Part shown: in pieces, positions 2,880-21,556 of the stretch
Numbering within the stretch: position 1 is the stretch's first letter
How the letters are laid out: every line of letters starts with the position of its first letter
Assembly (NCBI GenBank): GCA_917627385.1
Contig: CAKJTL010000092.1
Coordinates: 35,523 to 57,246 of the forward strand
Direction of reading: 5' to 3'
DNA length: 21,724 nt
DNA from: Frankia sp. CIT1
Lineage (GTDB): Bacteria; Actinomycetota; Actinomycetes; Frankiales; Frankiaceae
Notes under the pieces: model-generated
Database searches by the model: none
Seen by the model: the letters and a program-made list of their open reading frames with translations, nothing else
What the model was told of the DNA's origin: nothing
Made by a program: the position numbers and the translations under genes

Positions 2880-5846
2880 TCATACTTTTTCGGACTGAAT
2901 CAGCTTCTTGGCGGCATGCGGTTTCGGTGACCCGGCCCGCTCACCGGGCCTGCGGGAGTCAGCCGGGGCCGCGTCGGCCGGCTCCCCGGTCGGCTCCCCG
3001 GTCGGCTCACCAGCCGGCTCGGCGGTCAACTCGCCGGCCGGCTCCCCAGTCGGCTCACCAGCCGGCTCGGCAGTGGAGCCGGCGGTGTCGCTGTCCTCCC
3101 CGAGATAGGCACGGATCACATCGGGATTGGTCCGGATCTCCTCAGGTGCCCCTTCGGCGATCTTCCGACCGAAGTCGAGCACCGCGATGCGGTCGCAGAT
3201 GCCGAGGACCAGCGGAATGTCATGCTCGATCAGCAGAACGGCGGTGTTGCGCCGCTCGGCGATCCCCCGGATGACCGTCCCGATCTCGGCGCTCTCATGG
3301 GAGTCCAGACCGGCGGCCGGCTCGTCGAGGAACAGCACGTTCGGATCAGCGAGCAGCGCCCGAGCCACGCCGACGAGCCGCGCCCGGCCATGCGGAAGCT
3401 CAGCGGGCTTGCTGTCCAGCAGATCCGTCAGCCCGAACTCCTCGATGATCTCTTCCATGGTGACGGACGGACGCTGCCGCCCAGGACGGATCATGTCGGT
3501 GAAGTAGTACCCCGGCGCCTGGGTGTCCGCGGCGGCGAGCAGATTCTCCCGGACCGTCATGTCCGGGAACAGCTCGACCGCCTGGAAGGACCGGGCCAGC
3601 CCGGCCCGTGCCCGCCGTACCGGCGACCATCCGGCGATGGGCTTCCCGTCGAGCAGCACCTCACCCGACGTCGGCTTGGTGAAGCCGGTGACGATGTCCA
3701 GCAAGGTCGTCTTGCCCGCGCCGTTGGGGCCGATCAGCCCCAGCACCTTGCCCGGCTCAACGCGCAGGTTGACGTCGATGAGCGCCTGCACCCCACCGAA
3801 ACGGACGCTGAGATTACGCACCTCAAGAACCGCGGGCTCACGGCGACGGCTGGCGGCCGGACTGTCAGCGGCAGCTCCGTCGGCTCCGTCGGCTCCGTCG
3901 GAAGCGGCGGTCGCGCCGGTCGCGCCGGTCGCGGTGGTACCAGCGGGCGCCGCACCGTCTACAGCCGGCGCTGGTGCCGATCCGCCGCCGCGCAGCCGTG
4001 CGACAAGTGCCTGATAACCATCGGAGTTGAGTTTGGCGATCCCGTCCGGGGCCTGGAAAAGTGTCAGGATGACGCCACCACCGGCGATGAGGGGCAGCCA
4101 GCCGCTGATGTCACCGAGCGAATCAACGATCTTCGCCGTGACACCGCCCGCAATCATGGTGGCGCCGGCCAGGCTGCCCGACGCCCAGCCAATACCGCCA
4201 ATCACCGCATACATGACGACGTTGATGGACCCGAACACGTCGAACTGAGTGAAGACCACGGTCGGGCTGCGGAACCCGGTGAGGATCCCGCCGATCGCGC
4301 CGATCGCGGCGGCCAGGCCGAAAGCGTAGAGCTTGGCCCCGTAGACCCCGATGCCGATCGACGCGGCAGCCCGCTCATTGCTGCGGATCGCCAGCAGCCG
4401 CCGACCGGTGCGGCCACGCCGCACATTGGCCACGAGGAGACCGAGCAACACCAACATGATCAGGACAAGAGTCGCGTAGCGCCGAGGGTAGGTGATCGGG
4501 TCGAGGTCGACACCGAACAGGGACGGCGTCCCGACATTGGTCCCGTCAAGCCCGCCGGTAAGCTCACCGTTACCCAAGATCATATTCTGGATCACCAGTG
4601 CCAGGCCGAGCGTGGCGACCGCGAGGTTAACCCCACGGGTACGCAGTGCGGGCAGCGCCACAATGAGACCGGCCGGTATCGCGGCAAGAACACCGACGAG
4701 TGCCGCCAGCCAGAATGGCCACCCCGACGCGGCGACCAGCCGGGCCGCGACCCAGGCACCGAAGCCGGCCAACGCCCACTGACTGAGCGAGAGCTGTCCA
4801 GCGTAACCGGTGACGACGACGACGGACAGCACGAGCACCGCCGCGATGAAGGTCGTGGCGAGCGAGTCGACCCAGTCGGTAGGCACTGTCCAGACGAGCA
4901 ACGCACCCGCGGCGATCGCCGGAATGAGCAGCGGCAGGTTCACCCGTCCTGGACCGGGCAACGGCAACCGCACGGGAAGGTCACCGCGGGCGGGCCGGGC
5001 ACGTCCACCGAGAGTGAGAATGACGATAATCAACAGGAACGGTACGGAATCCGCGAGCCCGGTGACGTCGGCGAGGTAGCGTCCGACCTCCGCCTGCACG
5101 ACACCGAGCAGCATGGCGCCGCCGATCGTGAGCAGGAAGGACGAGAAGCCTCCGACCAGCGCCGCCGCGAGCGCGGGAACGACAAGCAGGGTGAGTGCAC
5201 CCGCGGACAGTCCGGTGATGGGCGCGAGAAAGATCGCGGCGGTGGCGTACAGCGCGCCGCCGACGCTCCAGTTCACCAGCTCAATCATGGATGTCGACCA
5301 TCCGGAGGCCGCTGCCGTGCGCCGGTTCTCCGCCACCGCCGTGGTCGCGAGACCGAACCGGGTCCGGGAATAGATCAACCACAGGACGGCCGCGAGCACG
5401 ATCAGAAGACCGATGAGGACGATACGGTCCTTACCGATGACCAACGAGCCGGTCACGTGGACCGCCTTGGTCGGCAGGATCGACTTCACCAGCTCCTGCA
5501 CGGACCCCCAGACAAGCACCACCACGCCCTCGAGGAACAGCAGGACTCCGAGCGTGGCGATGAGCTTGACCAACGCGGAGGCCCGGCGCAGCGGGACCAT
5601 GACCAACAGGTGGGTGGCACCACCCAGCGCCGCCCCGAACGCGATACTCAGCACCAGCGCGGCGATCCAGTTCACATGATGGGTGTCGCGCAGGTCATAG
5701 AAGACGAAGGCGGCGAAACCGCCCGTCACGCCGCTGGCGAAGTTCAGTACTCCGGAGGCTCGGAAGACCAGCACGATCCCGAGCGCGGCCAGCGCGTACA
5801 AGCTGCCCGTGCCAAGACCCAGCAGGGCAAAGCGGAGGAAATCCAC
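2880..5846 (-). CDS. Triple-fusion ABC transporter subunit: LivH-like permease + LivM-like permease + LivG-like ATPase, with a low-complexity C-terminal tail
   Basis: Single uninterrupted 988-aa ORF. Residues 1-290 are a LivH-type permease (MDFLRFALLGLGTGSLYALAALGIVLVF...). Residues 300-640 or so are a LivM-type permease (...GYAGQLSLSQWALAGFGAWVAARL...). A Thr/Gly/Ala/Asp-rich linker (TTATGATGATAASDGADGADGAA) follows. Then comes a LivG-type ATPase (VLEVRNLSVRFGGVQAL...GPNGAGKTTLL...LDEPAAGL...). The C-terminus is an (EPxG)n tail. Confidence 0.85.
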   Translation of the reverse strand: MDFLRFALLGLGTGSLYALAALGIVLVFRASGVLNFASGVTGGFAAFVFYDLRDTHHVNWIAALVLSIAFGAALGGATHLLVMVPLRRASALVKLIATLGVLLFLEGVVVLVWGSVQELVKSILPTKAVHVTGSLVIGKDRIVLIGLLIVLAAVLWLIYSRTRFGLATTAVAENRRTAAASGWSTSMIELVNWSVGGALYATAAIFLAPITGLSAGALTLLVVPALAAALVGGFSSFLLTIGGAMLLGVVQAEVGRYLADVTGLADSVPFLLIIVILTLGGRARPARGDLPVRLPLPGPGRVNLPLLIPAIAAGALLVWTVPTDWVDSLATTFIAAVLVLSVVVVTGYAGQLSLSQWALAGFGAWVAARLVAASGWPFWLAALVGVLAAIPAGLIVALPALRTRGVNLAVATLGLALVIQNMILGNGELTGGLDGTNVGTPSLFGVDLDPITYPRRYATLVLIMLVLLGLLVANVRRGRTGRRLLAIRSNERAAASIGIGVYGAKLYAFGLAAAIGAIGGILTGFRSPTVVFTQFDVFGSINVVMYAVIGGIGWASGSLAGATMIAGGVTAKIVDSLGDISGWLPLIAGGGVILTLFQAPDGIAKLNSDGYQALVARLRGGGSAPAPAVDGAAPAGTTATGATGATAASDGADGADGAAADSPAASRRREPAVLEVRNLSVRFGGVQALIDVNLRVEPGKVLGLIGPNGAGKTTLLDIVTGFTKPTSGEVLLDGKPIAGWSPVRRARAGLARSFQAVELFPDMTVRENLLAAADTQAPGYYFTDMIRPGRQRPSVTMEEIIEEFGLTDLLDSKPAELPHGRARLVGVARALLADPNVLFLDEPAAGLDSHESAEIGTVIRGIAERRNTAVLLIEHDIPLVLGICDRIAVLDFGRKIAEGAPEEIRTNPDVIRAYLGEDSDTAGSTAEPAGEPTGEPAGELTAEPAGEPTGEPTGEPADAAPADSRRPGERAGSPKPHAAKKLIQSEKV
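2975..3080. repeat. 12-bp periodic in-frame tandem repeat (about 8 units, cggctcNNNNgN) encoding the C-terminal (P-A/T-G-E)n tail of the fused transporter
   Basis: Read directly: cggctccccggt cggctccccggt cggctcaccagc cggctcggcggt ... It translates on the minus strand as PAGEPTGEPAGELTAEPAGEPTGEPTGEP. Confidence 0.7.
3873..3934. repeat. 9-bp in-frame tandem repeats (gctccgtcg x3; gtcgcgccg x2.5) encoding the permease-ATPase linker
   Basis: Read directly. It translates as TGATGATAASDGADGADGA within the fusion protein. Confidence 0.6.
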
Positions 5847-5933
5847 GTCGGAAAGCCTTTCTGCCGAGAACGCGGGTATGCCGGCGCACCCGGCCGCGGG
5901 AGGAACCGCGGCCGGGTGCCGAAACAGCCGCGG

Positions 5934-7151
5934 TTAGGAGCTGCCGAGGACGTTGAATGCCTGGTTGTCGAACAGTGGTGTACGGGTACCGTTTTTGACC
6001 TCGGAGAAGTACACACTGGTGGTGAAAATCCGGTTACCGTCGAACAGAACCTTGATCGGCTTGGCGAAGTCCACCTTGGGCAGCGGCGAGAAGTCGATCT
6101 CTCCGGCGGTATTCAGAGCATTGGCCAGGCTCTCCCCGTCGATCGTGGTCAGCTTCGCCGCGTACTGGGCCACCAAGTGGACGGTCGCCCACGCGGTCAT
6201 GGCACCTTCGCTGCGGGTGTCAGCGGCAACACCGGCGGCATCCAGCTCGGAGTTGAACTGCTTGATCGCGGGAATGGTGGTATCGCTGGCCGGTGGCATC
6301 GAACCAACCAGCACCAGCCCGTCCGCGGCCGATCCAAGCGTCTTGATCATTTTATCCTCGATGACCGTAGCGCCGTAGGCGGTCGTGACCTTGGAGCCCG
6401 CCTGCGAGAGCGCCTGCAACAGCTTGGACGCCTGGCTCGAGCCCAGCACCATGTCGATGCAGTCGGTGGTGCCGCTGGTCAACGTGGCCGCGCTGGTCGT
6501 CAGGTCGGTGGCAGTCGGCGCGATCGGCACAGTCTTGTTGATGTTCAGGTTGAACGACTTGAGGCCGATGCCGAAGAAGGAAGCCGAGTTGCGTCCAGCC
6601 GCGATGTCGACGACCGCGACGGCCGGATCCTTCTTACCCAGCTTGCCACAGGCCGTCCCGCCACCGGCGATGTTGACCGCGCCGCTGCCGAACGGGAAGG
6701 AGTACGGGCTCTTGAGCTCACTGGCGCTGCTCGGTACTTCACCGATCGCCGGGATCTTCGCCTTCTCCAGGATCGGCATGTACCGGTCGCCGGTGCTGGA
6801 GTTGGCCGTCACGAACAGGTACTTGCCCTGAACGGCCTGGGTCGCACAATCAGCGCCCTTGTTCGGGTCGAACTGGTCATCGCAGGCGGTGACCTCCAGC
6901 GGCCGGCCCTTGATACCGCCGGCCTTGTTGATTGCTTGAGCCGCGGCCTTCACCGCCGCGGGGACTCCCGGGTAGCTGTCGGACGGGCCTGACAGCGCCT
7001 GGATCGTCATGATCTTTATGGGTTCGCCGGAAAGCTTGGTCGCCGACCCCGACGCGGCACTCCCGTCATTCGACGAAGAACTACCGCATGCGGCCAGCGC
7101 GAGGGCACCGGCAAGCGCTACGGCGAAGGGTGCCTTCGAGCGGACTTTCAT
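5934..7151 (-). CDS. ABC transporter substrate-binding lipoprotein, branched-chain amino-acid (Leu/Ile/Val-binding, Peripla_BP_6-like) family
   Basis: ORF 5934..7256. The best start is ATG at 7149-7151 (MKVRSKAPFAVALAGALALAACGSSSS...), preceded by AAGGAGG. It has a lipoprotein signal peptide with a lipobox LAAC. It is the first gene of the operon. Third-position GC is noticeably lower than in neighbouring genes. Confidence 0.85.
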   Translation of the reverse strand: MKVRSKAPFAVALAGALALAACGSSSSNDGSAASGSATKLSGEPIKIMTIQALSGPSDSYPGVPAAVKAAAQAINKAGGIKGRPLEVTACDDQFDPNKGADCATQAVQGKYLFVTANSSTGDRYMPILEKAKIPAIGEVPSSASELKSPYSFPFGSGAVNIAGGGTACGKLGKKDPAVAVVDIAAGRNSASFFGIGLKSFNLNINKTVPIAPTATDLTTSAATLTSGTTDCIDMVLGSSQASKLLQALSQAGSKVTTAYGATVIEDKMIKTLGSAADGLVLVGSMPPASDTTIPAIKQFNSELDAAGVAADTRSEGAMTAWATVHLVAQYAAKLTTIDGESLANALNTAGEIDFSPLPKVDFAKPIKVLFDGNRIFTTSVYFSEVKNGTRTPLFDNQAFNVLGSS

Positions 7152-7370
7152 GATCCTCCTTGAGAAGGGTAACTGAATCACCGAACGCAACAGTATGAAT
7201 CGCTTAATCGGATAGACATTTCTACAGTGCGCGAAGTGTGACCTTTGACACCACACCCGTCAAGTCCCAGACTCACCGCATGCCCGGAAATCCACGAATA
7301 TGACTCTTGGTGTCAGTACCAGCACAATCTGGTCCACCGGCGCGGTCAGCGGAGCCGGCTCGGCAAGGGC

Positions 7371-12264: not shown

Positions 12265-14031
12265 GTGACTGTGAGTCGCGAGCAGCTCCGCCGTGAAGCG
12301 GACAGGGCGATCGACGAGGTGCTCGCGGGACGGGAAGCGTGCGAGCTGGAGTCGCAGACACTCGACTTCAAGGAGCTGAAGCGTCCCGCGGGCAACGACC
12401 GCGACCTGCTGAAGGCCGCGGCTGCCGACCTCGCCGAAGCTGTGGCCTGCCTGGCCAACAGCCGGGGCGGGACGGTCATCGTCGGGGTGCGCGACGATGG
12501 GGCTGGGCCCGCGGCCATCGTGGGCGTACCCACCGACCTCGACATAGACGATCTTCGCCATCGAATCTGGCAGCACACGTCGCCATCCTTGGTAGTCGAT
12601 ATTGAAAGTCGCGTCGCACACGGCATGCGGCTGCTTCTCATCACCGTGGAAACAGCATTTGACCTGGTTCGGGCTGGTGGAAAACTTCGCGAACGGATGG
12701 GCACCTCCTGCGAACCGATGGCTCCTGGCCGGGAAGCCGTCATCCGTGACGAGCGCCGTGGATACGACTGGTCCGCCGAGCCCACGCACCTGCGGGTCGA
12801 CGACGTGTCCCCACGCGCGGTCGAGGAGGCACGCCGTGGGCTCACCGAGGCGGGAGACGCCCAGAGCCGTCGGCGTGCCGAGCTAAGCGTCACCGACCTC
12901 CTGCGTGAGTGCGCGGTTCTGGACAGCAGCGGACATCTCACCCGGGGAGGTGCCCTGCTGTTCAGTAGCCTGCACCCTTTCGCCGCTGATCCGACAATCC
13001 AGTACCTGCGGCGGCGGACGCCGGCCGGTCCCCTTACCCGTCCATCATCAGTCCACCGAACTCCCCTGATTGTCGCCCTGGCCGATCTTCTTCGGGATAT
13101 TGACGCAATCAACGAGACCACGTCGGTCACACTTCCCACCGGCGTGCAACAACAACTCGAAACGATTCCCGGCCCGGCCGCGCGCGAAGCCGTGGTCAAC
13201 GCAATCGCACACCGCGACTACCGGCATCGTGAGCCGGTAGTCGTCGAGCACAGCCCCAGCCGGCTCGTTGTGACATCACCTGGGGAGCTGGTGTTCGGGG
13301 TAACCGAGGAGAACTTGCTCACGCATGTGTCCAAGCCGCGAAACCGCTGCCTGGTCGAGGCGCTGCGGGTGCTCCGCCTGGCGGAAAGAGCCGGCACTGG
13401 TGTCGATGTGATGGTACGGGTCATGATCCGCGCAGGACATCCGCCGCCGGTCTTTACAAGCAGGAGCGGGAGCGTCCGGGTCGTCATCGACGGCGGTGCT
13501 CCTGTGACACGCCTTGCGGTAATGATCGCAAGCCTGCCTGTTGAGGTGCAGGACGACACTGATGCAATTCTGCTCATTCATTTCCTGCGGTCCCATGCGA
13601 CCGTCGATGCGGTTAAGATCGCTCCTATCCTCCAGAAGAGCGTTGAAGAGGCATCCGAGGCTCTCCGGCGGCTGTCGGACGACACCTACGATCTGCTGGA
13701 GCCGGTTCGAGCGACACGCCGGTACCGGATACCCGCGTATCGCTTCCGGGAACGTACGCGCGCGGAACTGGGCACGCTGCTGCCCTACCATCGCAACGAC
13801 TCCGATGAGATCGAGCGTCGTATCGTCGCACACCTGCGCGAATATGGGACGATCTCCAACCAGACCGTCCAGAACCTGTTCCTGGTGGGGGTCCAGCGGG
13901 CGAGCACGCTCCTGCGTTCGCTCGCGGAGAAGGGCGTGCTCCAGCGCACGGCCGACTCGCCGACCCGCGGACCGACCGTCAGGTACGAAGCCGGGCCGGC
14001 GTTTCCACAACGCGGCAGCCGCCGCCGATGA
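12265..14031 (+). CDS. Schlafen-like ATPase/DNA-binding protein: AlbA_2 (divergent AAA) domain + HATPase_c_4 ('RecG C-terminal-like', COG2865 family)
   Basis: 588-aa ORF starting at GTG. N-terminal 'LDFKELKRPAGNDRDLLKAAAADLAEAVACLANSRGGTVIVGVRDDGAG' fits AlbA_2. The central 'AREAVVNAIAHRDYRHREPVVVE' matches the NAxxHRDY signature of HATPase_c_4. The C-terminus has a wHTH-like region. This is recalled motif similarity with no search. Confidence 0.7.
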   Translation: MTVSREQLRREADRAIDEVLAGREACELESQTLDFKELKRPAGNDRDLLKAAAADLAEAVACLANSRGGTVIVGVRDDGAGPAAIVGVPTDLDIDDLRHRIWQHTSPSLVVDIESRVAHGMRLLLITVETAFDLVRAGGKLRERMGTSCEPMAPGREAVIRDERRGYDWSAEPTHLRVDDVSPRAVEEARRGLTEAGDAQSRRRAELSVTDLLRECAVLDSSGHLTRGGALLFSSLHPFAADPTIQYLRRRTPAGPLTRPSSVHRTPLIVALADLLRDIDAINETTSVTLPTGVQQQLETIPGPAAREAVVNAIAHRDYRHREPVVVEHSPSRLVVTSPGELVFGVTEENLLTHVSKPRNRCLVEALRVLRLAERAGTGVDVMVRVMIRAGHPPPVFTSRSGSVRVVIDGGAPVTRLAVMIASLPVEVQDDTDAILLIHFLRSHATVDAVKIAPILQKSVEEASEALRRLSDDTYDLLEPVRATRRYRIPAYRFRERTRAELGTLLPYHRNDSDEIERRIVAHLREYGTISNQTVQNLFLVGVQRASTLLRSLAEKGVLQRTADSPTRGPTVRYEAGPAFPQRGSRRR

Positions 14032-14084
14032 AACCGAGGGATGCGGGTCACTGTGAGCGCGCCAAGACCACCCACGACAACCAC

Positions 14085-14759
14085 ATGACCGAACGCCCCT
14101 ACATCCTGCTGTCGGCCGCCACATCCGTGGACGGCTATCTCGACGACACCGCCAACCAACGGCTGATAATCTCCAACAAGGCCGACCTCGACCGGGTCGA
14201 CGAAGTCCGTGCCAGCGTCGACGCCATCCTGGTAGGCGCGAACACCATCCGCCGCGACAACCCCCGGCTGCTGGTCCGCTCGATAGCCCGCCGCACCGAC
14301 CGGATAACCCGCGGCCTCCCCGAAAACCCCATCAAAATCACCCTCACCAGTCGCGGCGACCTCGACCCCACCGCCAGCTTCTTCACCACCGGGCCAGCCG
14401 AGAAAATCGTCTATGTCACGACTCCCGCCGTGAACAAGACCCGCGAGCACCTCACCGACGTGGCATCTGTCGTGGACACCGGTAACCCACTCGACCTCCA
14501 CACCCTCCTGGCCGACCTCGCCGCGCGCGGCGTACGCCGGCTGATGGTCGAGGGCGGCGGCACCATCCACACCCAGTTCCTCACCGCCGGGCTCGCCAAC
14601 GAGATCCACCTGGTGATCGCACCGTTCTTCATCGGCGACCCGGCCGCACCCCGCTTCGCCGGCACCGGCACCTTTCCCCACCACCCCGGCCACCGGATGA
14701 CACTGGCCGAGGCCCGTCAGCTCGACGACGTCGTCTTCCTGCGCTACCTGCTCGGCTGA
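14085..14759 (+). CDS. RibD C-terminal domain / dihydrofolate-reductase-like reductase
   Basis: ORF 14028..14759. ATG 14085 (MTERPYILLSAATSVDGYLDD...) fits the family N-terminus (xRKvilyiAxSLDGyIA). The alternative start ATG 14028 overlaps the upstream TGA as ATGA, implying possible translational coupling. The C-terminal 'RRLMVEGGGTIHTQFL' is typical of RibD_C. Confidence 0.8.
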   Translation: MTERPYILLSAATSVDGYLDDTANQRLIISNKADLDRVDEVRASVDAILVGANTIRRDNPRLLVRSIARRTDRITRGLPENPIKITLTSRGDLDPTASFFTTGPAEKIVYVTTPAVNKTREHLTDVASVVDTGNPLDLHTLLADLAARGVRRLMVEGGGTIHTQFLTAGLANEIHLVIAPFFIGDPAAPRFAGTGTFPHHPGHRMTLAEARQLDDVVFLRYLLG

Positions 14760-14811: not shown

Positions 14812-15354
14812 TCAGAGTGCCAGCCACTTGTCGAATGAGGGCCTGTCGATCACTTCAGGAGGACTTCCTCGCTGATGAGTGCGGAGGGTCTGGGTATATC
14901 CCCACAAGGCGTCAGCGTCGACCCATTCCCGCTTGGCCGCGACCTTCAACAGGTGCCAGGTCCTGACTACTTTGATCTTGTTCCGAGCGGCGAGCCGTAC
15001 GGCATCGTTGTCATCGGTGACGAAGAATCCGTGCACGCGGCGACGGATCATGATTGCGAGCGTCTCGGCTTCACCGAGGTGTCGGTGAGGGTGGTCGCCT
15101 GGGCTGGCAAGCTCCTCGCGAAGAAGCCTCGTGTCCTGAAGTTCTGCCGCGTCGGGGAACCAGGGCGACCCGAAAATGCCCCTGGCATCGGCCAACGCGG
15201 CGAGACCGGGTTTGCGTGCCGACGAGTCGCATTCCGCTGCCACGGTGGCGCACCAGTGGCCGTGGCCGTTCGCCAGCCGCTCCAGCAGATCCATCCGGTT
15301 GATGATCGCAAAATTGATCAGAACTGTGTTGTCCGGGAACAGGAGCACGGCCAC
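14812..15354 (-). CDS. PIN-like (VapC-like) putative nuclease / toxin partner of the upstream XRE-ImmA gene
   Basis: 180-aa ORF. The GTG start at 15352-15354 lies 3 nt after the upstream gene's TGA. N-terminal 'VLLFPDNTVLINFAIINRMDLLERL' resembles PIN strand-1 (DxNVLI). 'GEAETLA' and 'FFVTDDNDAVRLA' supply the further acidic residues of a PIN active site. Assigned from memory of motifs. Confidence 0.6.
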   Translation of the reverse strand: MAVLLFPDNTVLINFAIINRMDLLERLANGHGHWCATVAAECDSSARKPGLAALADARGIFGSPWFPDAAELQDTRLLREELASPGDHPHRHLGEAETLAIMIRRRVHGFFVTDDNDAVRLAARNKIKVVRTWHLLKVAAKREWVDADALWGYTQTLRTHQRGSPPEVIDRPSFDKWLAL

Positions 15355-15357
15355 GGT

Positions 15358-16461
15358 TCAGAGGTCCAACGCCCTAGCAAGATCATCAATGGTCACCTCA
15401 GGCACTGCGGGGATGTCAACATCCAGCGCATCGGGATCAATACCGAGCATCCAGGCGAGCGTTCCCTTGCCGAGGGTCCCGGCTTCGATCCCTTTGAGGT
15501 GCGCCTCCTGCAGCGTGAGGGGGAAACGACGCTGGGCGGCTGCGTCCATACGCAAAGTGATCTCATCTTTACCTGAATTGGGCGCCCGGTGACGCCGCAA
15601 CAAACGCTGGGTCGGTTGTCCGGCCCATTCCCGCACCACATCGGGCACGTAGCCGTTCAGGGCATGCAGGCGGCGGGCGAGTGCGTCGGTGGACACACCC
15701 CACCGCCACACGAGGTCAGCCAGCCCGGCCGCCTCGTACCGGTCCCAGTCGATCACGGCAAGCGACTCACGGGGGAGCAGAAGCTCCGCCGCGAACGCGT
15801 TCGCGGCCGCCTCGCGCTGGTCCCGCTCGGCCGCGGAGAACCCCTGGTCGTGGTGACCCCAGACGAGATGGCCCAACTCATGTGCCATTGACCAGTTCTC
15901 CCAGAACCAGTTCCCGGTCGCCGAGAGCGCGATCACATGGCGGCCACCGATGGTGAACGAGTACGCGGTGGACAGGTCTGCGATCCGCACAACATCGACG
16001 CCGAACCGGCTCTCCAGCCGATCCGCGAAGGGGCGCACGAAGTCCTCACCCAGCGCCACCCTGACCCCATCAGCACCAGCCCCGTCAACACTCTCTGGAA
16101 GGGCTGGTCCGTGCTGCGGTTCGGAGTAGGCCTGACGGTAGGCCAAGGCGATGTCGCGTAGCACCAGCCCGTCAGCGTCACGCTCGGGTACGCTCCGACG
16201 ACCCGTCAGGTGATTAAAATCGTGACGCGCCGCGACGATCAGCCGATGCGGGTCGGGCTGTCCGGTGATCAGCCAATGGATGTCCGCATCCAGCAGGTCA
16301 GCCAGGCGCGCCAACTCGATCGAGGAGAAGGCGCGCTTGCCGTTTAGCGCGCGCGAGAACGCATCGGGCGGCATCCCGATGTCCGCCGCGATGTCCCGCT
16401 GCCGGGTGGTGGGGCAGACCTGCCTGATATGCTCCAGCACGCGGTCACCAATACTGTGCAT
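15358..16461 (-). CDS. XRE-family HTH transcriptional regulator fused to an ImmA/IrrE-family Zn-metallopeptidase (COG2856)
   Basis: 367-aa ORF with ATG at 16459-16461. The N-terminal HTH is 'TRQRDIAADIGMPPDAFSRALNGKRAFSSIELARLADLLDADIHWLITG'. The HEXXH zinc motif is 'SMAHELGHLVWGHHD'. A C-terminal extension of about 100 aa follows. Confidence 0.85.
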   Translation of the reverse strand: MHSIGDRVLEHIRQVCPTTRQRDIAADIGMPPDAFSRALNGKRAFSSIELARLADLLDADIHWLITGQPDPHRLIVAARHDFNHLTGRRSVPERDADGLVLRDIALAYRQAYSEPQHGPALPESVDGAGADGVRVALGEDFVRPFADRLESRFGVDVVRIADLSTAYSFTIGGRHVIALSATGNWFWENWSMAHELGHLVWGHHDQGFSAAERDQREAAANAFAAELLLPRESLAVIDWDRYEAAGLADLVWRWGVSTDALARRLHALNGYVPDVVREWAGQPTQRLLRRHRAPNSGKDEITLRMDAAAQRRFPLTLQEAHLKGIEAGTLGKGTLAWMLGIDPDALDVDIPAVPEVTIDDLARALDL

Positions 16462-16476
16462 ACATGCATGCTACCT

Positions 16477-16503
16477 GTTCCGTTGGGAAAATCCCAACGG
16501 AAC
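16477..16503. promoter_or_regulatory. Perfect 12-bp inverted repeat GTTCCGTTGGGA-aaa-TCCCAACGGAAC, 16 nt upstream of the XRE-ImmA start codon; candidate autoregulatory operator
   Basis: Read directly. The arms contain CCGTTG / CAACGG half-sites, which recur at 16637-16656. Confidence 0.5.
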
Positions 16504-16665: not shown

Positions 16666-17925
16666 TTACTCAGCCGGTGACTCGACGACCTCCGCATGCG
16701 AGGCGTCCTGTTGCGCGGCGCGCACGGCGGCATCCGCGGATGAGCCGCCGGCCGGGGCGATCTGTGGACGCGGGCCGTCGCTGGAAAACTCGGCTGTCGG
16801 GCCGCCGCTGAGCGAGCCGATCAGGTTCGTCAGTTCACGCATGATGTCGGGCCCGAACCCGGCCAGCCCGGTCATCAGACTGACCAGCCCCTTGTCGTGG
16901 GAACCCGCAATGTAGGTCCGCAGGTTCGGCAGTAGTTTGCCCTTGGCCTCCAGGATCTCCGGTAGCCTTTCCACGATCATCCGTTGGATGTTCTCCTCGT
17001 GGTGGCCGCCTTCAATACGCAGCCGTTCGGCCAGTTTGTATGCCTCCAGCTCGGCCAGTGCCCGGGCGTGGTCGCGTTCCGACGCCCGGCTTTCATCCGC
17101 CACCGCTATGCGTGCCCTGGCGACTTCCAGCCGTCTCAGCTCAGCATAGGTGTCGGCATCCGCTCTGGCCCGCTCCGCCGTCAGCCGCTCGTTCGCCTCC
17201 CGCCGGGACCGCGTGGCACTGATCTGATCCTCTATAGCCAGTTTGGTCGTAAGCGTCCGCAGGTGAGCGTCCAGCGATATCTTCTTCTCCCGCTCCGCCA
17301 CCCAGTCCGCAGGCAGCACAACGTTCGCGACGGACAGTGGCCGCGGTTCGAATCCCATCTCCACCAGTGCCGGCCTGGACCTCCACATCACCTCGTCCGC
17401 GATCTTTCCGAAATCGCGATCGACCTGCCCCATGGCCCGTTCGCCCACCACGTCACGAATATGTACGACAAGGGTGTCGATGACTTGCCGGTGCATGTTC
17501 TCCGTGTCCTCGCCGAAATGCTCGCTCACCGTCCGGATCGCCTGCTCGTCTCGTGGGATCCGAAAAGCTGTACGAAGATCGAGCGTCAGCGGCACCTCGT
17601 CGGAGGACTGACAGGTCACCCGGAACTCGATCGGCTGCCACTGCAACGAAATCTTGGTGAGGATGGCGCCCGGAGGGAGGAAGATCCGCCCTTTCAGCAC
17701 CACCTTGATGCGATGATCCCACCACCCCGAGACGACACCCGCCTCGTCCTGGCCCAGCGGTTCCGACAATTTTGCCATGACGACTCCTAGAACAAACAGC
17801 GCCAGCAGCGCGAAGAATAATTTGGGGATGACGAACAACAGCCAGCCGGCCAGCGCTGTCACCGCGATCAGCGCGCCGAGATTCCAGGGTGACTGGTTCC
17901 TCAGCCATGCACGCCAGTCATTCAT
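16666..17925 (-). CDS. SPFH / band-7 (flotillin-stomatin-like) membrane protein with C-terminal coiled coil
   Basis: ORF 16666..17973 with TTG at the ORF end. ATG at 17923-17925 (MNDWRAWLRN...) is 17 nt after the subtilase stop. One or two N-terminal TM helices are present ('LGALIAVTALAGWLLFVIPKLFFALLALFVLGVVMA'). The SPFH core is 'IKVVLKGRIFLPPGAI...VPLTLDLRTAFRIPRDEQAIRTV'. A long Arg/Glu/Ala-rich coiled coil follows ('RREANERLTAERARADADTYAELRRLEVARARIAV...'). Confidence 0.8.
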   Translation of the reverse strand: MNDWRAWLRNQSPWNLGALIAVTALAGWLLFVIPKLFFALLALFVLGVVMAKLSEPLGQDEAGVVSGWWDHRIKVVLKGRIFLPPGAILTKISLQWQPIEFRVTCQSSDEVPLTLDLRTAFRIPRDEQAIRTVSEHFGEDTENMHRQVIDTLVVHIRDVVGERAMGQVDRDFGKIADEVMWRSRPALVEMGFEPRPLSVANVVLPADWVAEREKKISLDAHLRTLTTKLAIEDQISATRSRREANERLTAERARADADTYAELRRLEVARARIAVADESRASERDHARALAELEAYKLAERLRIEGGHHEENIQRMIVERLPEILEAKGKLLPNLRTYIAGSHDKGLVSLMTGLAGFGPDIMRELTNLIGSLSGGPTAEFSSDGPRPQIAPAGGSSADAAVRAAQQDASHAEVVESPAE

Positions 17926-17941
17926 ATCGGCCCCGGTGTCA

Positions 17942-19447
17942 TCAGACTGACTGGATGGCCCGCATGACGTCAACCAGGCCGTGCCCCTGAAACTCCCGTA
18001 CCCGGCCGAGATCGGTCGCGGAGTCCAGGAAAACCTTTTTTACCCGTTCGGGGCTGCCGATAAACTCGCTACGCACCGAGAGAAAGGCGGCGATGGCCCC
18101 GGAGACGTGTGCCGCCGCCAAGCTCGTCCCGCTGAACTCGCTGTAGTCTGGATAGTCCCAGTCCTCGTCGTCGGGCTGGGCCGTCGAGCTGACGCAGCTC
18201 ACAATGTGTTCGCCGGGGGCGACAAGGTCCGGCTTGAGCCGGCCATCCCCCGTCGGCCCCTTGGAGGAAAAATAGGAAACCCCGTACCGGTGCGGAGCGA
18301 CTCGATGCGTGGAGCCGACCGTGATAGCGCCGAAGGCGTTTCCTGGATCGTTGATCGTAACGCCCGCGCTGAAATCATCGGTGTTCCGGGCTACTTCCGT
18401 CCGCACGAAACCCGAATTGCCGGCGGCAACGACCACCAACACGCCCGAGGCGACCATGCGGTCGACCTCGTTGCACAGCGGGGAATACCCGCCGACAAAC
18501 CACTCCGGGTAAAACGAGTAGCCAAGGCTCAGATTTACTCCGTGAATGCGAATGTTACGGCCGTAGTCGTTGACCCGCTGGATGTGCTCCAGCGCCGCGA
18601 TCACCGCACTCACGTTGGCCAGCCGGCCCGCGCCGAACACTTTGTAGCTCACAATCTTACAACGCGGGGCGACACCGCCGATCCTGGTGATCGCGGACGT
18701 GTACGCATCCACCGTCTTGTCGCCGTCAAGCAGCATCTGGCGGACACGTAACCGACGTCCACCGGTTTCGGCGGAGTCAGCCGCCACCTCACCCGCGATG
18801 ATACCGGCGACCGGCGTGCCATGCCCGATACCATAATCATCCCGGGTTGGAGCGTTGCCGTCCGTCAGATCGACGTGCTCAAGTTGAGCCGGCAGACTGA
18901 GATTGTCCCATTTAGCAAAGTGTGGGTGCCGCTCGTCAACCCCGGAGTCGACAACCGCCCAGACAATGTTTTCACCGAACGCGCCGAAGGTTGCCTGAGC
19001 CGCGTCGCCCTTTATCACCGCCACGGACCTGTCCAGCAGCGCCGAAACTTCGAAGTCGGGCCAGACCCGCCGGATCGCGCGCAGCCGCCAGTTGCCGGCA
19101 TCCTGTTCAGCCTGCTCGACATCGACGTGGACGACCCAGCGCACAGCCTCCGGCGGGAGGACCGCGACGACGTAGGAACGGCCCAGCTCCCGAGACAGCC
19201 GCGACTCACCGATGTCGTCGAACACGTTCATCTCGCTGAACCGCACGGCTGCCTCGGTCAGCAGCGTGCGCACGGTATTCGCGGCACCGCGGCGGCCGGC
19301 GGGGAAATCCGGGTTGAGGTCGAAGATGACCCGGACGGTGCCCGATGCACTTCGGCTCTCCAGCTCTGTCAGCCGCGACTCCAGCGCAGGCGTGATGACG
19401 GACCGGGCATGCGTTACCGGCCGGCGGCCAGGATCATCGAATTTCAT
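17942..19447 (-). CDS. Subtilisin-like S8 serine peptidase lacking a signal peptide (predicted cytoplasmic)
   Basis: ORF 17942..19549. The 5' 100 nt of the ORF are AT-rich with A/T third positions and contain a palindrome, so they are probably non-coding. The likely start is ATG at 19445-19447 (MKFDDPGRRP...), with GGGGGA 6 nt upstream. An alternative start is ATG 19478-19480. The catalytic Asp is in 'WAVVDSGVD', the His in 'GHGTPVAG', the Asn in 'AAGNSG', and the Ser in 'SGTSLAAAHVSGAIAAF'. No hydrophobic N-terminal signal is present. Confidence 0.85.
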   Translation of the reverse strand: MKFDDPGRRPVTHARSVITPALESRLTELESRSASGTVRVIFDLNPDFPAGRRGAANTVRTLLTEAAVRFSEMNVFDDIGESRLSRELGRSYVVAVLPPEAVRWVVHVDVEQAEQDAGNWRLRAIRRVWPDFEVSALLDRSVAVIKGDAAQATFGAFGENIVWAVVDSGVDERHPHFAKWDNLSLPAQLEHVDLTDGNAPTRDDYGIGHGTPVAGIIAGEVAADSAETGGRRLRVRQMLLDGDKTVDAYTSAITRIGGVAPRCKIVSYKVFGAGRLANVSAVIAALEHIQRVNDYGRNIRIHGVNLSLGYSFYPEWFVGGYSPLCNEVDRMVASGVLVVVAAGNSGFVRTEVARNTDDFSAGVTINDPGNAFGAITVGSTHRVAPHRYGVSYFSSKGPTGDGRLKPDLVAPGEHIVSCVSSTAQPDDEDWDYPDYSEFSGTSLAAAHVSGAIAAFLSVRSEFIGSPERVKKVFLDSATDLGRVREFQGHGLVDVMRAIQSV

Positions 19448-19516
19448 TACGTCCCCCGATCTGCGGCATTGGACGGCCATGGGACCGCCGGATCCGACTA
19501 TATATGCGATAAGGCT

Positions 19517-19529
19517 GGGGAAATTCCCC
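19517..19529. promoter_or_regulatory. Palindrome GGGGAA-A-TTCCCC in the AT-rich spacer between the TIR-WD40 and subtilase genes
   Basis: Read directly. It is flanked by low-GC sequence (ctatatatgcgataagg). This is a candidate internal operator or promoter region. Confidence 0.35.
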
Positions 19530-19563
19530 CTGATACGGGATTGCCGCACTCACTCAAACGTCC

Positions 19564-21453
19564 CTACGGGTGGAAAGGTTCCGCATCGTCGACCGGATGC
19601 GTAGCCGACGGGGACGTGGACGGGTTCGGCAGACGCCACAGAGCCGCCTCACCGGCGTCGGATGCGGTGGCGAACCAGCGCCCGTCAGGGCTGAACGCGA
19701 CCGCGTTTACGCGCGGTTCGTGCACCGATCGGTGCCTCGCCGGCCCCGCGGAAAGATCATAAACAAAGACCACCCGATATGCCGGGCTGTGCGCGGCCAT
19801 GAAACGTCCGTCCCGGCTGACGGTAAGCGCGCCCGGCGTTCTGGGGTGGGAGAACCGTGCCCGTACCCGGCAGGCTGCCACGTCGATAAACGAGATGACC
19901 ATCGAACGGTGGCGTAACACAAGCAACTGGCCGGCCAGGCCGAGCGCGGCGTCCACTACCTCGGAGCCCGCCGCGGTGAAGTCCCCAGCATCTTTACCGG
20001 CCGCCGAGGGGTAGACGCAGGCACCGGTGGCGAGCGCCCACAGCCGTGGCGAACAGCTGTCATCCAGGGTGACCAGCCACCCGCCATCCCAACTGAACCG
20101 AGCCGCCGTCACACGACGTACCGTCTCCACGGTCTTCCTGACCTCGCCACTGGCGCTGTGGCGCATCACAAGGCACTCCGACCGGGTGTCCCGAAGCGCG
20201 ATGAAGCGACCGTCCGGGCTCGCCGCGACAAAGGCCTCCCCCTCGGCCCCCAACCGGCTTCCGGCCAAGGCAATGCCCAGGTCAACGCCCAGGTCAACGC
20301 CCAGGTCATGGCGCCAAGCACCGGCCTGCGGGAAACAGCTCAACAGGTACCGCCCAGCCGGGCCGAACAACAGCGCGGGGGGCGTCTGTCCACTCGCCCA
20401 GAGGTGGGTCACCCGAGCAGCCGACACATCCCACAATCGGGAATTCCCGTCCAGACAAACCGTTGCGAGCAGCGAGTCATCGGGGCTGAACACGGCATGC
20501 CGAACCGGTGCCGGATGCACGAAGGTCCCTTGGCAGCGGAGGCTGTCGACCTTCCAGCACCGGACCGCGCCGTCCCGACCGCCTGTCACCAGCCGCCGCG
20601 AGTCGGAACTGAACGCAACCACGAGTACGGGCGACGGCCGGCCGACGGCTGAGGGGCTGGCATGCCGCAGAACGCCCACCTTCGTCGGCCCGCCGTCAGC
20701 CACGATCCCGGCCAGCGGCCGAACCGGCTTCCGTCCGGTAGACGGGCCGTTCTCAGCCGCCGGAGATGCGGGCACCGGCCGCGCCCGGGACTCCGGCGGC
20801 TGCCGCGTGCTGTCTAGCGCACCGCATGGTGCGCCGTCTGGCGCGCTGTCTGGCGACCCCGGAAACGGGTATGGGGGTGGAACCGGACCGGCGCGATCCG
20901 CAGGCAGGAGGGTCGGGCCGGGGAAGTCCGGCTCGGACGCTGGTTTCCCCCGCCCTGACATGGCCGCGGTGACGCCCGCGAGCAGCCGCTCACGGGCGTC
21001 GTCCGCCGTCAGTCCGAAGATGTCGAAGGAGACCACCCGCCCCAGCAAACCCGGCCGGGGACAGTCCTCGACGCGGACGGGGATCAGCTTGCGTTCCGTG
21101 CCGCTCTGGTCGGCTAGGTGGGCGGCCTCCCATTCGGTGCGGCCCCACCCCGACTCAAGGTAGGCGGCCGAAAGGATCGCCAGGGTATGGCGGGCGCCGC
21201 GGATACCTTCCTCCATTCGCGCGGTCCAGTGTGTACCCGGCACGAAGTCCCATTTCTGGAACAGCACCCGATAGCCGGCTCGCTCCAGCTGCCACGCGAT
21301 CCACTCGGCCCAGGGCATGTCCGCGGCGGTATAGGAAATGAAAAAATGCCATGACGCGACGACAGGCAGCGGGACTGACATTGGTGGAGTGGCTGCCGCG
21401 GGCGGCGCGGCCCGCGGCAGCCGGCGCTGCGCATCGTCAGCACGCTCGAGCAT
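19564..21453 (-). CDS. TIR-domain protein fused via a Pro-rich disordered linker to a 7-bladed WD40 beta-propeller, with no NTPase domain
   Basis: ORF 19564..21495. The likely start is ATG at 21451-21453, with GGGGGGAA upstream. Alternatives are ATG 21493-21495 and ATG 21379-21381. The TIR domain is 'SWHFFISYTAADMPWAEWIAWQLERAGYRVLFQKWDFVPG...LAILSAAYLESGWGRTEWEAA', which carries the S..Y..S.W...E motif including the putative catalytic Glu. A linker of about 100 aa follows ('GKPASEPDFPGPTLLPADRAGPVPPPYPFPGSPDSAPDG...'). WD40 blades include 'VVAFSSDSRRLVTGGRDGAVRCWKV', 'AVFSPDDSLLATVCLDGNSRLWDV' and 'AVAFSPDGRWFATASDAGEAALWRL'. Confidence 0.8.
   Translation of the reverse strand: MLERADDAQRRLPRAAPPAAATPPMSVPLPVVASWHFFISYTAADMPWAEWIAWQLERAGYRVLFQKWDFVPGTHWTARMEEGIRGARHTLAILSAAYLESGWGRTEWEAAHLADQSGTERKLIPVRVEDCPRPGLLGRVVSFDIFGLTADDARERLLAGVTAAMSGRGKPASEPDFPGPTLLPADRAGPVPPPYPFPGSPDSAPDGAPCGALDSTRQPPESRARPVPASPAAENGPSTGRKPVRPLAGIVADGGPTKVGVLRHASPSAVGRPSPVLVVAFSSDSRRLVTGGRDGAVRCWKVDSLRCQGTFVHPAPVRHAVFSPDDSLLATVCLDGNSRLWDVSAARVTHLWASGQTPPALLFGPAGRYLLSCFPQAGAWRHDLGVDLGVDLGIALAGSRLGAEGEAFVAASPDGRFIALRDTRSECLVMRHSASGEVRKTVETVRRVTAARFSWDGGWLVTLDDSCSPRLWALATGACVYPSAAGKDAGDFTAAGSEVVDAALGLAGQLLVLRHRSMVISFIDVAACRVRARFSHPRTPGALTVSRDGRFMAAHSPAYRVVFVYDLSAGPARHRSVHEPRVNAVAFSPDGRWFATASDAGEAALWRLPNPSTSPSATHPVDDAEPFHP
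20275..20310. repeat. 12-bp in-frame tandem repeat x3 (gcccaggtcaac) inside the WD40 region, encoding DLGVDLGVDLGI
   Basis: Read directly. Confidence 0.6.
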
Positions 21454-21556
21454 GGTTCCCCCCGGATGAACCAGCGCCACCGAATGAATCAGCATCGACG
21501 CAGCGAAGCGTACGCCGAAGGCGACCCGCCTACCGGTACGCCCGCCCGGTGTGGAC

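Follow-up and report, generated by a model that had tools for sequence, protein, structure and literature searches.

The window analysed here is a stretch of 21,724 nucleotides (nt) from the genome of Frankia sp. CIT1 (assembly GCA_917627385.1, contig CAKJTL010000092.1, positions 35,523 to 57,246 of the forward strand). Within it lie two adjacent minus-strand genes, which we term A and T. A encodes a protein with an XRE-type helix-turn-helix (HTH) domain and an ImmA/IrrE (M78) metallopeptidase domain and is a predicted antitoxin, autorepressor and sensor. T encodes a PIN-fold protein and is a predicted ribonuclease toxin. The coordinates of the two genes, of their domains and of the neighbouring genes are collected in Table 1.

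Both open reading frames (ORFs) were found where an original prediction, made from the sequence of the window, had placed them, and the TGA stop codon of A was seen 3 nt ahead of the GTG start codon of T (...GACCTC TGA ACC GTG GCC...). Frankia sp. CiP3 has a protein, annotated as 'ImmA/IrrE family metallo-endopeptidase', that matches A at 100% identity, and the T protein shares 99% identity with one from Frankia sp. CIT1. An exact-sequence search with A of the window returned no entry; the identical database protein, P0271, led to the native contigs. In the window, A and T occupy one reading frame, the stop codon being followed by a single sense codon (15355-15360). The same layout was observed in the related loci L001-L004, L010, L015 and L017; readthrough of the TGA codon would yield an A-T fusion protein. 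Since the shared frame is found in some loci and is absent from most others, it was not taken as a signal for readthrough or fusion and is probably incidental.

Table 1 Positions of the A-T gene pair, its predicted domains and regulatory sites, and the neighbouring genes within the window.
Feature	Position (nt)	Residues	Strand	Description or basis
Gene A	15358-16461		minus	ATG start, 367 residues; XRE-HTH / ImmA-IrrE (M78) metallopeptidase / helical C-terminal domain
Cro/C1-type HTH of A, five helices	16264-16461	1-66	minus	Profile, Foldseek and model
Linker of A	16189-16230	78-91	minus	Invariant Ala78-Arg79-His80, aromatic residue at 82, low-confidence stretch
Peptidase_M78 (ImmA/IrrE) domain of A	15664-16008	152-266	minus	PF06114
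HELGH motif of A	15868-15882	194-198	minus	
C-terminal domain of A, four helices	15370-15564	300-364	minus	Model, conserved columns
Gene T	14812-15354		minus	GTG start, 180 residues; PIN-fold protein
PIN core of T	14959-15354	1-132	minus	Structure model
Conserved helical C-terminal extension of T		133-180	minus	48 residues
Operator-like perfect palindrome	16477-16503			GTTCCGTTGGGA-TTT-TCCCAACGGAAC; 12+12 with 3-nt spacer, 27 bp; inverted-repeat search
Candidate -10 hexamer TAGCAT	16468-16473		minus	Actinobacterial TANNNT type; conservation
SPFH/Band_7 gene	16666-17973		minus	No PADLOC match
Peptidase_S8 subtilase gene	17942-19549		minus	PADLOC 'subtilase' 4e-49, weaker IetS matches
TIR_2 + WD40 gene	19564-21495		minus	
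Schlafen/AlbA_2 + HATPase_c_4 gene	12265-14031		plus	588 residues; weak PADLOC matches to prokaryotic Argonaute (pAgo)-associated models
RibD_C-domain gene	14028-14759		plus	4-nt ATGA overlap with the Schlafen gene

T is predicted to adopt a PIN fold

The nature of T was assessed by structure prediction. The AlphaFold2 model, built from an alignment of 20 homologues, was of high confidence (mean predicted local distance difference test score, pLDDT, of 94.9) and displayed the Rossmann-like alpha/beta/alpha arrangement of the PIN fold. In a Foldseek comparison with the PDB, the top 50 matches were without exception PIN, VapC or HARP chains, and the nearest solved structure was that of SSO1118 (2mdt), a member of COG2405.

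Alignment of 42 relatives of T, spanning 29-65% identity, revealed residues D8, W34, G94, E95 and D115 to be invariant, and E41, E71, E97, T113, D114 and T132 to be nearly so. Within the model, D8 follows strand 1, E41 lies inside the helix spanning residues 36-45 and T113-x-D115 follows the strand formed by residues 109-112; conserved acidic residues are thus present at canonical PIN positions. The PIN-like motifs quoted in the original prediction could be located in the protein as DNTVLINF (residues 8-15), GEAET (94-98) and TDDNDA (113-118), and their reading as PIN-like is borne out by the modelled fold, the Foldseek matches and the conservation of the acidic residues. As the T protein of the window keeps all of the conserved PIN residues, it looks catalytically competent on the strength of its sequence and model. 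The fold check that had been suggested for the 180-residue protein therefore returned a PIN fold by structure prediction; sequence profiles did not identify a relevant PDB chain, a point to which we return below.

Family assignment of T by sequence was less direct. Searches of Pfam and NCBIfam yielded noise matches and no usable family. A match of the T profile to a GPN-loop GTPase (expectation value, E, of 0.62) was judged to be spurious. Amongst the PADLOC models, T produced weak matches to PDC-S70 candidates (E = 5e-4) and fell under no model named RmrT. No match to PF11848 (DUF3368) was obtained for T or 19 of its homologues at E <=10 in the Pfam copy searched, whereas the source collection records this family for nearly every member of the T family (P0001-P0120; L059 11108-11650). 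The discrepancy may reflect differing model versions, and the assignment of T to the DUF3368 subfamily is uncertain. The Joint Genome Institute (JGI) name for homologues of T is 'predicted nucleic acid-binding protein'. A representative search of 1.8 billion proteins grouped the family into 554 clusters at 50% identity.

A combines a Cro/C1-type DNA-binding domain with an M78 peptidase

The structural model of A, which was built with database homologues, had a pLDDT of 84 and resolved the N-terminal HTH domain, the linker, the M78 core and the C-terminal domain, with a helical subdomain between the last two. The five N-terminal helices span residues 4-15, 21-27, 32-39, 47-57 and 61-66. Pfam matches to residues 20-64 fell below threshold (HTH_31, 18.8 bits against a cut-off of 27; HTH_3, 17.1 bits against a cut-off of 23). 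The N-terminal profile matched the 434 repressor with an E of 8.5e-6, and the domain superposed on those of P22 c2, 434, SinR and ImmR with target-normalised template modelling (TM) scores of 0.75-0.9 in Foldseek. We conclude that the N-terminus of A is a genuine Cro/C1-type DNA-binding domain. The N-terminal profile was also unusually close, over residues 3-76, to 4ich_A (E = 2.6e-15), an uncharacterised structure of a 311-residue 'transcriptional regulator' that did not align with A beyond the HTH.

The peptidase domain was identified with confidence, A scoring 57.9 bits against PF06114 (cut-off 22; E = 1.1e-15). Residues H194, E195 and H198 of the HELGH motif are invariant, as is E217, the predicted third zinc ligand; A therefore possesses the hidden Markov model (HMM) match, the HEXXH motif and the downstream glutamate that together mark peptidases of the M78/COG2856/DUF955 group. 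When the family profile was compared with the PDB, the matches were to VapB52 (9vzy_A, E = 5.4e-5), IrrE (2.7e-4) and CapP (1.6e-3), while the top Foldseek match of the model core was CapP (7t5t). Consistent with these relationships, the PADLOC models matching A include capP (E = 3e-13) and 15 for the Rosmer antitoxin RmrA (best E = 1e-15); these models carry no curated cut-off. The original description of A as an XRE HTH joined to an HEXXH peptidase of the M78 family accordingly stands, resting on the PF06114 match, the 434-repressor profile match and the Foldseek superpositions. The 18-residue loop between the HExxH motif and the glutamate carries a conserved His203-His204 pair; this loop is deleted in three distant members of the family.

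Two further regions of A are distinguished by their conservation. Between the HTH and the remainder of the protein, A78, R79 and H80 are invariant in our alignments A2, A3 and A5, which include the HTH genes of the split loci described below, and all 115 close homologues contain the motif ARHx[FYWV]. The residues that follow (81-91) form the sole low-confidence stretch of the model, with pLDDT values below 50. By analogy with VapB52, the segment 78-91 is a candidate self-cleavage or pseudo-substrate linker. At the opposite end of the protein, four helices (residues 300-310, 315-327, 333-339 and 358-364) contain the conserved stretches ITxRMDAAAxRRFP, TLAWMLG and LAxALGL, and residues 300-364 may, on analogy with VapB52, constitute a toxin-masking domain.

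A conserved candidate promoter-operator precedes A

An inverted-repeat search revealed a perfect palindrome that lies 16 nt upstream of the ATG codon of A. Its 15-bp core, TTGGGA-N3-TCCCAA (16483-16497), is the sole such site in the window when up to two mismatches are allowed. Of the 58 related loci (see below), 53 have the core no more than 120 nt ahead of the A start codon, at a distance of 26-44 nt in 51 of these and of 76 nt in L057 and L058; only seven other sites were present in 656 kb.

The candidate -10 hexamer, TAGCAT, lies 9 nt past the palindrome core and 6 nt ahead of the ATG. Among 54 upstream regions, 53 have a TANNNT hexamer 7-10 nt past the core, where 1.8% would be expected from the background, and in 44 regions the start codon follows the hexamer by 6-7 nt. 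A generic sigma-70 scan found no promoter; the assignment therefore rests on conservation of the TANNNT hexamer and not on a consensus match. In actinobacterial promoters, such a spacing between the -10 element and the start codon is that of a leaderless messenger RNA (mRNA). The sequence thus implies that the A-T mRNA would be leaderless. Were transcription to begin at the ATG of A, the palindrome core would cover the -35 region, from about -36 to -22. This placement fits the operator of an autorepressor, and the palindrome is a putative binding site for A itself. The conserved promoter-operator is new to this analysis and did not form part of the original finding.

A and T are inherited together

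To define the family, a pattern scan was performed using one genome per species, which yielded 58 loci, almost all from Actinomycetota. These include representatives of Frankia, Pseudofrankia, Nocardioides, Rhodococcus, Mycolicibacterium, Cellulomonas, Arthrobacter, Micromonosporaceae and Propionibacteriaceae. A homologue of A was located upstream of the T homologue in all 58 loci, and directly upstream in 57; in the exception (L011), about 1.3 kb is inserted between the two. In the other loci, the gap between the genes ranged from about -7 to +28 nt. This pairing is far beyond chance. Furthermore, the identities of the A and T homologues to the window pair were correlated (r = 0.94, 44 loci), and because they co-vary, A and T are held to be co-inherited, with no sign of partner swapping. 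The genes flanking the pair are variable, and no neighbour seen in the window recurs beside it. The pair thus shows the arrangement expected of a type II toxin-antitoxin (TA) system, namely two adjacent, co-directional and tightly coupled genes that remain paired across unrelated contexts.

The two genes differ in their pattern of decay. T is frameshifted or deleted in eight loci (L020, L023, L030, L037, L044, L046, L047 and L056), and in seven of these A is intact, the exception being L023. The converse, a broken A beside an intact T, was observed in none of the loci examined. Several of the disrupted loci derive from metagenome assemblies, in which frameshifts may be sequencing errors. More trustworthy are those from isolate genomes, namely Protofrankia coriariae and Frankia tisae; in the latter (L056), T lacks residues 63-150 through an internal deletion. 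Decay of T whilst A stays intact is what would be expected if T were harmful without A.

In four distant loci (L050, Propionibacteriaceae; L055, Propionimicrobium; L057, Varibaculum; and L058), A is split into two genes, at about 4900-6600 (2500-4150 in L058). The first encodes the HTH plus linker in 113-132 residues, ends in ...YRQAYG and retains the Ala-Arg-His motif. The second, which overlaps the first by an ATGA sequence, encodes the peptidase plus C-terminal domain in 243-249 residues and is followed by the PIN gene. The split loci therefore have the two-protein layout of ImmA/ImmR, IrrE/DdrO and CapP/CapH, and correspond to the 'three-component' system predicted by Makarova et al. (PMC2701414). 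As this is a protease/repressor layout, these sequences support the suggestion that the peptidase acts on the HTH module.

Comparison with characterised systems

The original prediction held that COG2856 regulators are partners of diverse toxins, and the literature is in agreement (PMC2701414, PMC5499597, PMC10440598, PMC6504116, PMC13273310). In 2009, fusions of Xre and COG2856 domains were predicted to lie beside PIN or RelE toxins, Rv2515c being the example named (PMC2701414). Matelska et al. reported that COG2405, DUF4411 and other PIN clusters are co-transcribed with HTH and DUF955 domains (PMC5499597), and NetFlax linked ImmA/Rosmer antitoxins to PIN-like toxins (PMC10440598). Rv2514c has been shown to be toxic in Mycobacterium smegmatis and to be countered by Rv2515c (PMC6504116).

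A 2026 study of the latter pair, from Mycobacterium tuberculosis, renamed it VapBC52 and solved the structure of the 1:2 complex (PDB 9vzy, 9vzz) (PMC13273310). VapBC52 is the closest characterised system to the pair described here. In that complex, a four-helix C-terminal domain of VapB52 occludes the PIN site of VapC52, and binding requires the XRE N-terminal domain. Single-stranded DNA (ssDNA) induces a zinc-dependent self-cleavage of VapB52 that releases its N-terminal domain; according to the authors, the probable cut lies at a conserved FR motif where the N-terminal domain meets the middle domain, and gating of the peptidase by a cysteine-switch loop was proposed. Mutation of the zinc site left toxin binding unaffected. 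VapC52 cleaves transfer RNAs (tRNAs), and its overexpression protects against phage D29 (all PMC13273310).

The resemblance to A and T is extensive at the level of architecture. Both systems place the antitoxin before the toxin and both belong to Actinomycetota. VapB52, like A, is large and consists of a five-helix XRE N-terminus, an HEXXH peptidase resembling IrrE and CapP, and a C-terminal domain of four helices, while VapC52, like T, is a PIN protein that carries an additional helix at its C-terminus and counts SSO1118 among its structural neighbours. Where VapB52 has the FR motif in its linker, A has Ala-Arg-His-x-aromatic, which abuts a disordered linker at the corresponding junction. The toxins differ in size and grouping, VapC52 having 153 residues and being classed with DUF4411 PINs (PMC13273310), whereas T has 180 residues and is COG2405/DUF3368-like. 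A 153-residue representative sequence (P0210) was considered as a candidate for Rv2514c and rejected, since it proved to be a T homologue that is truncated at the N-terminus and lacks an aspartate at position 6. The window pair has the same architecture as VapBC52 and is not its orthologue.

Other systems share individual components with the pair. RmrA, the antitoxin of RosmerTA (PMC10440598; Millman et al. preprint 10.1101/2022.05.11.491447), resembles A in joining an HTH to an ImmA-type M78 domain. Its toxin partner is variable, PIN-like partners having been noted by NetFlax (PMC10440598). RmrT of Gordonia phage Kita acts by membrane depolarisation and does not belong to the PIN proteins (PMC10440598), whereas T has the PIN fold. 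The gene order of RosmerTA is variable and often toxin-first, in contrast to the antitoxin-first order seen here.

In ImmA/ImmR of ICEBs1, IrrE/DdrO of Deinococcus and CapP/CapH of the cyclic oligonucleotide-based antiphage signalling system (CBASS), an M78 peptidase activated by a signal (DNA damage or ssDNA) cleaves a Cro/C1-type repressor. Of all structures, those of CapP and IrrE match the core of A best. In those systems protease and repressor are separate proteins, whereas in the window they are fused in A, and the output is a co-transcribed nuclease and not a regulon, a mobile element or CBASS. A also has no GAF domain, the predicted toxin-masking C-terminal domain standing in its place.

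Compared with other PIN toxins, T is set apart by its partner and its C-terminus. UPF0175 antitoxins are found solely beside COG2405 PINs (PMC5499597), whereas the partner of T is an XRE-M78 protein, and relative to the COG2405/DUF3368 PINs (SSO1118, 2mdt) T has a conserved C-terminal extension of 48 residues. With respect to classical VapBC systems, A is about four times larger than their antitoxin, has an enzyme domain and possesses no ribbon-helix-helix (RHH), AbrB or Phd fold.

Proposed mechanism and alternatives

We propose that A and T form an autonomous two-gene type II TA-like module, in which an XRE-HTH/M78 antitoxin is paired with a PIN toxin, and that the module probably serves as a stress- or phage-triggered growth-arrest switch of the abortive-infection type. 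We place the probability of this reading at roughly 65%. It upholds the TA-like or abortive-infection-like character originally suggested for the pair, and it fits the strict pairing, the variable flanks, the decay of T with A intact and the PADLOC matches to RmrA and CapP.

The mechanism that we envisage draws on sequence evidence for its first two steps and on analogy with VapBC52, CapP and ImmA for the remainder. A and T would be transcribed from the TANNNT promoter as one leaderless mRNA, T being translated by coupling because its GTG codon follows the TGA of A after 3 nt. The HTH of A would bind the 27-bp palindrome over the -35 region and so repress the operon. At the protein level, A would bind T, a putative metal-dependent PIN ribonuclease, directly and keep it inactive; D8, E41 and D115 of T would probably be masked by the N-terminal module and the four C-terminal helices of A. 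A signal would then activate the M78 domain; candidates, as for CapP, IrrE and VapB52, are ssDNA and other products that arise from DNA damage or when a phage replicates. The active peptidase would cut A itself within the flexible linker beside Ala78-Arg79-His80. Such a cut would at once de-repress the operon and free T, which may then cleave tRNA or another RNA and bring growth to a stop.

Several observations weigh against this interpretation. At the sequence level, alignment of A with VapB52 (E = 5.4e-5) was confined to the peptidase domain and extended to neither the N- nor the C-terminal domain. T and VapC52 showed no detectable sequence relationship, the fold alone being common to them, although the PDB set searched contains 9vzy. 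With A alike in the peptidase only and T without similarity to VapC52, the VapBC52 mechanism is transferred to the pair by architecture and not by orthology. Profiles of the T family, compared with PDB sequences at E up to 10, found no relevant chain, and the canonical fourth acidic residue of PIN proteins was not identified after the last strand of T. Furthermore, VapB52 and CapP possess a switch cysteine, whereas A does not and has the conserved His203-His204 instead: no cysteine lies between H198 and E217 in A of the window, and just 3 of 115 close homologues have any there.

The distribution of the family points in the same direction. Searches for the pair returned three partial matches in 72,556 plasmid records and one, an unverified record, in 50,697 phage records. 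In the loci examined it was nearly always chromosomal and present once per genome. The family is also unusually conserved, with 60-70% identity between orders, and on annotated contigs the pair often resides amid aldehyde dehydrogenase, peroxidase, P450 and coenzyme A (CoA)-metabolism genes. A chromosomal, conserved and often metabolic setting is less typical of selfish TA systems or defence cargo.

That setting favours the main rival. Under it, the pair would be a stress-response regulator and its regulated nuclease, with no role in addiction or defence: A, a fused DNA-damage sensor-repressor of the IrrE/DdrO (or LexA) type, would target its own operon alone, and T would be a non-lethal PIN ribonuclease induced for RNA turnover or quality control under stress. 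Besides the strong conservation, the single chromosomal copy and the great rarity on plasmids and phages, this alternative can draw on the similar lipid and CoA-metabolism neighbourhood of the pair within the Frankiaceae, on the single operator site in the window and on the resemblance of the peptidase to IrrE and CapP. We nevertheless regard it as unlikely. The family is small (554 clusters) and patchily distributed, its flanks vary, and several genomes carry a frameshift or deletion in T alone. A simple repressor would have no need of the conserved C-terminal domain of A, and in the architecturally equivalent M. tuberculosis pair, Rv2514c is toxic and Rv2515c rescues (PMC6504116).

A second alternative accepts the TA module and dispenses with its signal: A would bind T in the manner of a conventional type II antitoxin and be removed by Lon or Clp, the M78 domain being a mere scaffold with neither self-cleavage nor a dedicated trigger. 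The missing cysteine switch that gates CapP and VapB52 would suit such a scheme, as would the intact toxin binding of VapB52 after mutation of its zinc site (PMC13273310). Against it, H194, E195, H198 and E217, together with the Ala-Arg-His motif, are invariant down to 34% identity; this constancy of the zinc-site and linker residues argues that catalysis is under selection. Moreover, the split forms keep the peptidase gene beside its presumed HTH substrate. A purely structural role for the domain seems to us quite improbable. Least credible is the idea that the pair is the immunity or regulatory region of an integrated prophage or integrative and conjugative element, with A as a fused ImmR/ImmA-type repressor-antirepressor and T as passenger cargo: ImmA/ImmR and phage cI-like modules do share its domains, the N-terminus of A superposes on the ImmR and phage repressor domains, one metagenomic copy lies beside a transposase and one match came from the unverified phage record, but the pair is not bordered by integrase, phage or conjugation genes, either in the window or in the sampled loci, and its own promoter is its sole conserved surrounding.

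Returning to the self-cleaving TA module that we favour, the departures from VapBC52 also allow a more speculative version of it, which we hold to be possible though doubtful. The family may represent a distinct branch of self-cleaving peptidase antitoxins that manages without a cysteine switch, Ala78-Arg79-His80 or His203-His204 acting as a built-in pseudo-substrate or histidine switch. Its signal would be other than ssDNA, and its PIN protein might have a very specific RNA target. If so, the conservation and chromosomal stability of the pair would reflect a domesticated stress or phage checkpoint and not a selfish TA system.

The kind of module is itself well supported and fairly ordinary, having been predicted in 2009 and shown to work in M. 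tuberculosis in 2026. What the present family adds to the few TA systems that employ a sensor-protease antitoxin (VapBC52 and Rosmer, with CapP/CapH as regulatory cousins) is a well-delimited subfamily in which a COG2405-like PIN toxin is paired with an XRE-M78 antitoxin devoid of the switch cysteine. It offers a predicted operator with a core of 15 bp, a promoter expected to yield leaderless mRNA, a candidate motif for cleavage and natural fused and split antitoxins, and may serve as a comparative system for the gating of M78 peptidases without a cysteine switch. For annotation, the 'hypothetical protein' downstream of an 'ImmA/IrrE family metallo-endopeptidase' in Frankia and its relatives becomes a candidate PIN-domain toxin.

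Genomic neighbourhood of the pair

Upstream of the pair, the SPFH, S8 and TIR-WD40 genes (16666-21495) look like a separate candidate conflict system. On the other side, the Schlafen and RibD_C genes, which pair a Schlafen-like ATPase with a reductase-like protein, converge on the end of T. The whole block is bordered by lipid and CoA-metabolism genes and looks like a small defence or accessory island. On the native contig of Frankia sp. CiP3 (L059 3577-4537), beyond the end of the window, a Gp49 (HigB-like) gene and an HTH_3 gene directly precede TIR-WD40; these form a second TA-like pair of the island, outside the window.

The original prediction further held that the pair might make up a defence island together with the TIR-WD40 cassette. 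The adjacency is real, both in this genome and in sister Frankia assemblies. A conserved association, on the other hand, was not found: SPFH, S8 and Schlafen neighbours occurred in none of the 58 related loci, weak WD40-like matches were present in just two, and TIR-WD40, S8 and SPFH neighbours were absent from the sampled annotated contigs. A functional link between the pair and the TIR-WD40/S8/SPFH cassette was therefore rejected. Since the association is seen nowhere else, the island says nothing on how the pair works; the two are independent modules that are adjacent by chance.

Elsewhere, the Frankiaceae copies of the pair have a similar neighbourhood of lipid and CoA-metabolism genes, and in one metagenome-assembled genome the pair adjoins transposase, AAA_15 and GIY-YIG genes. 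A copy with a T protein of 37% identity is carried on the linear plasmid NZ_CP134205.1 of Streptomyces sp. BB1-1-1 (L072, 415478-421882), beside DUF2397/TIGR02678 genes. These genes we take to be a Wadjet-like system, which would make this one of the few copies in a defence context.

Finally, an ORF of 1256 residues without a family match was noted on the plus strand of the window (3222-6992). It lies antisense to an ABC transporter gene (2880-5846) and a Peripla_BP_6 gene (5934-7256) and is almost certainly spurious, long ORFs of this sort being produced by DNA of high G+C content.

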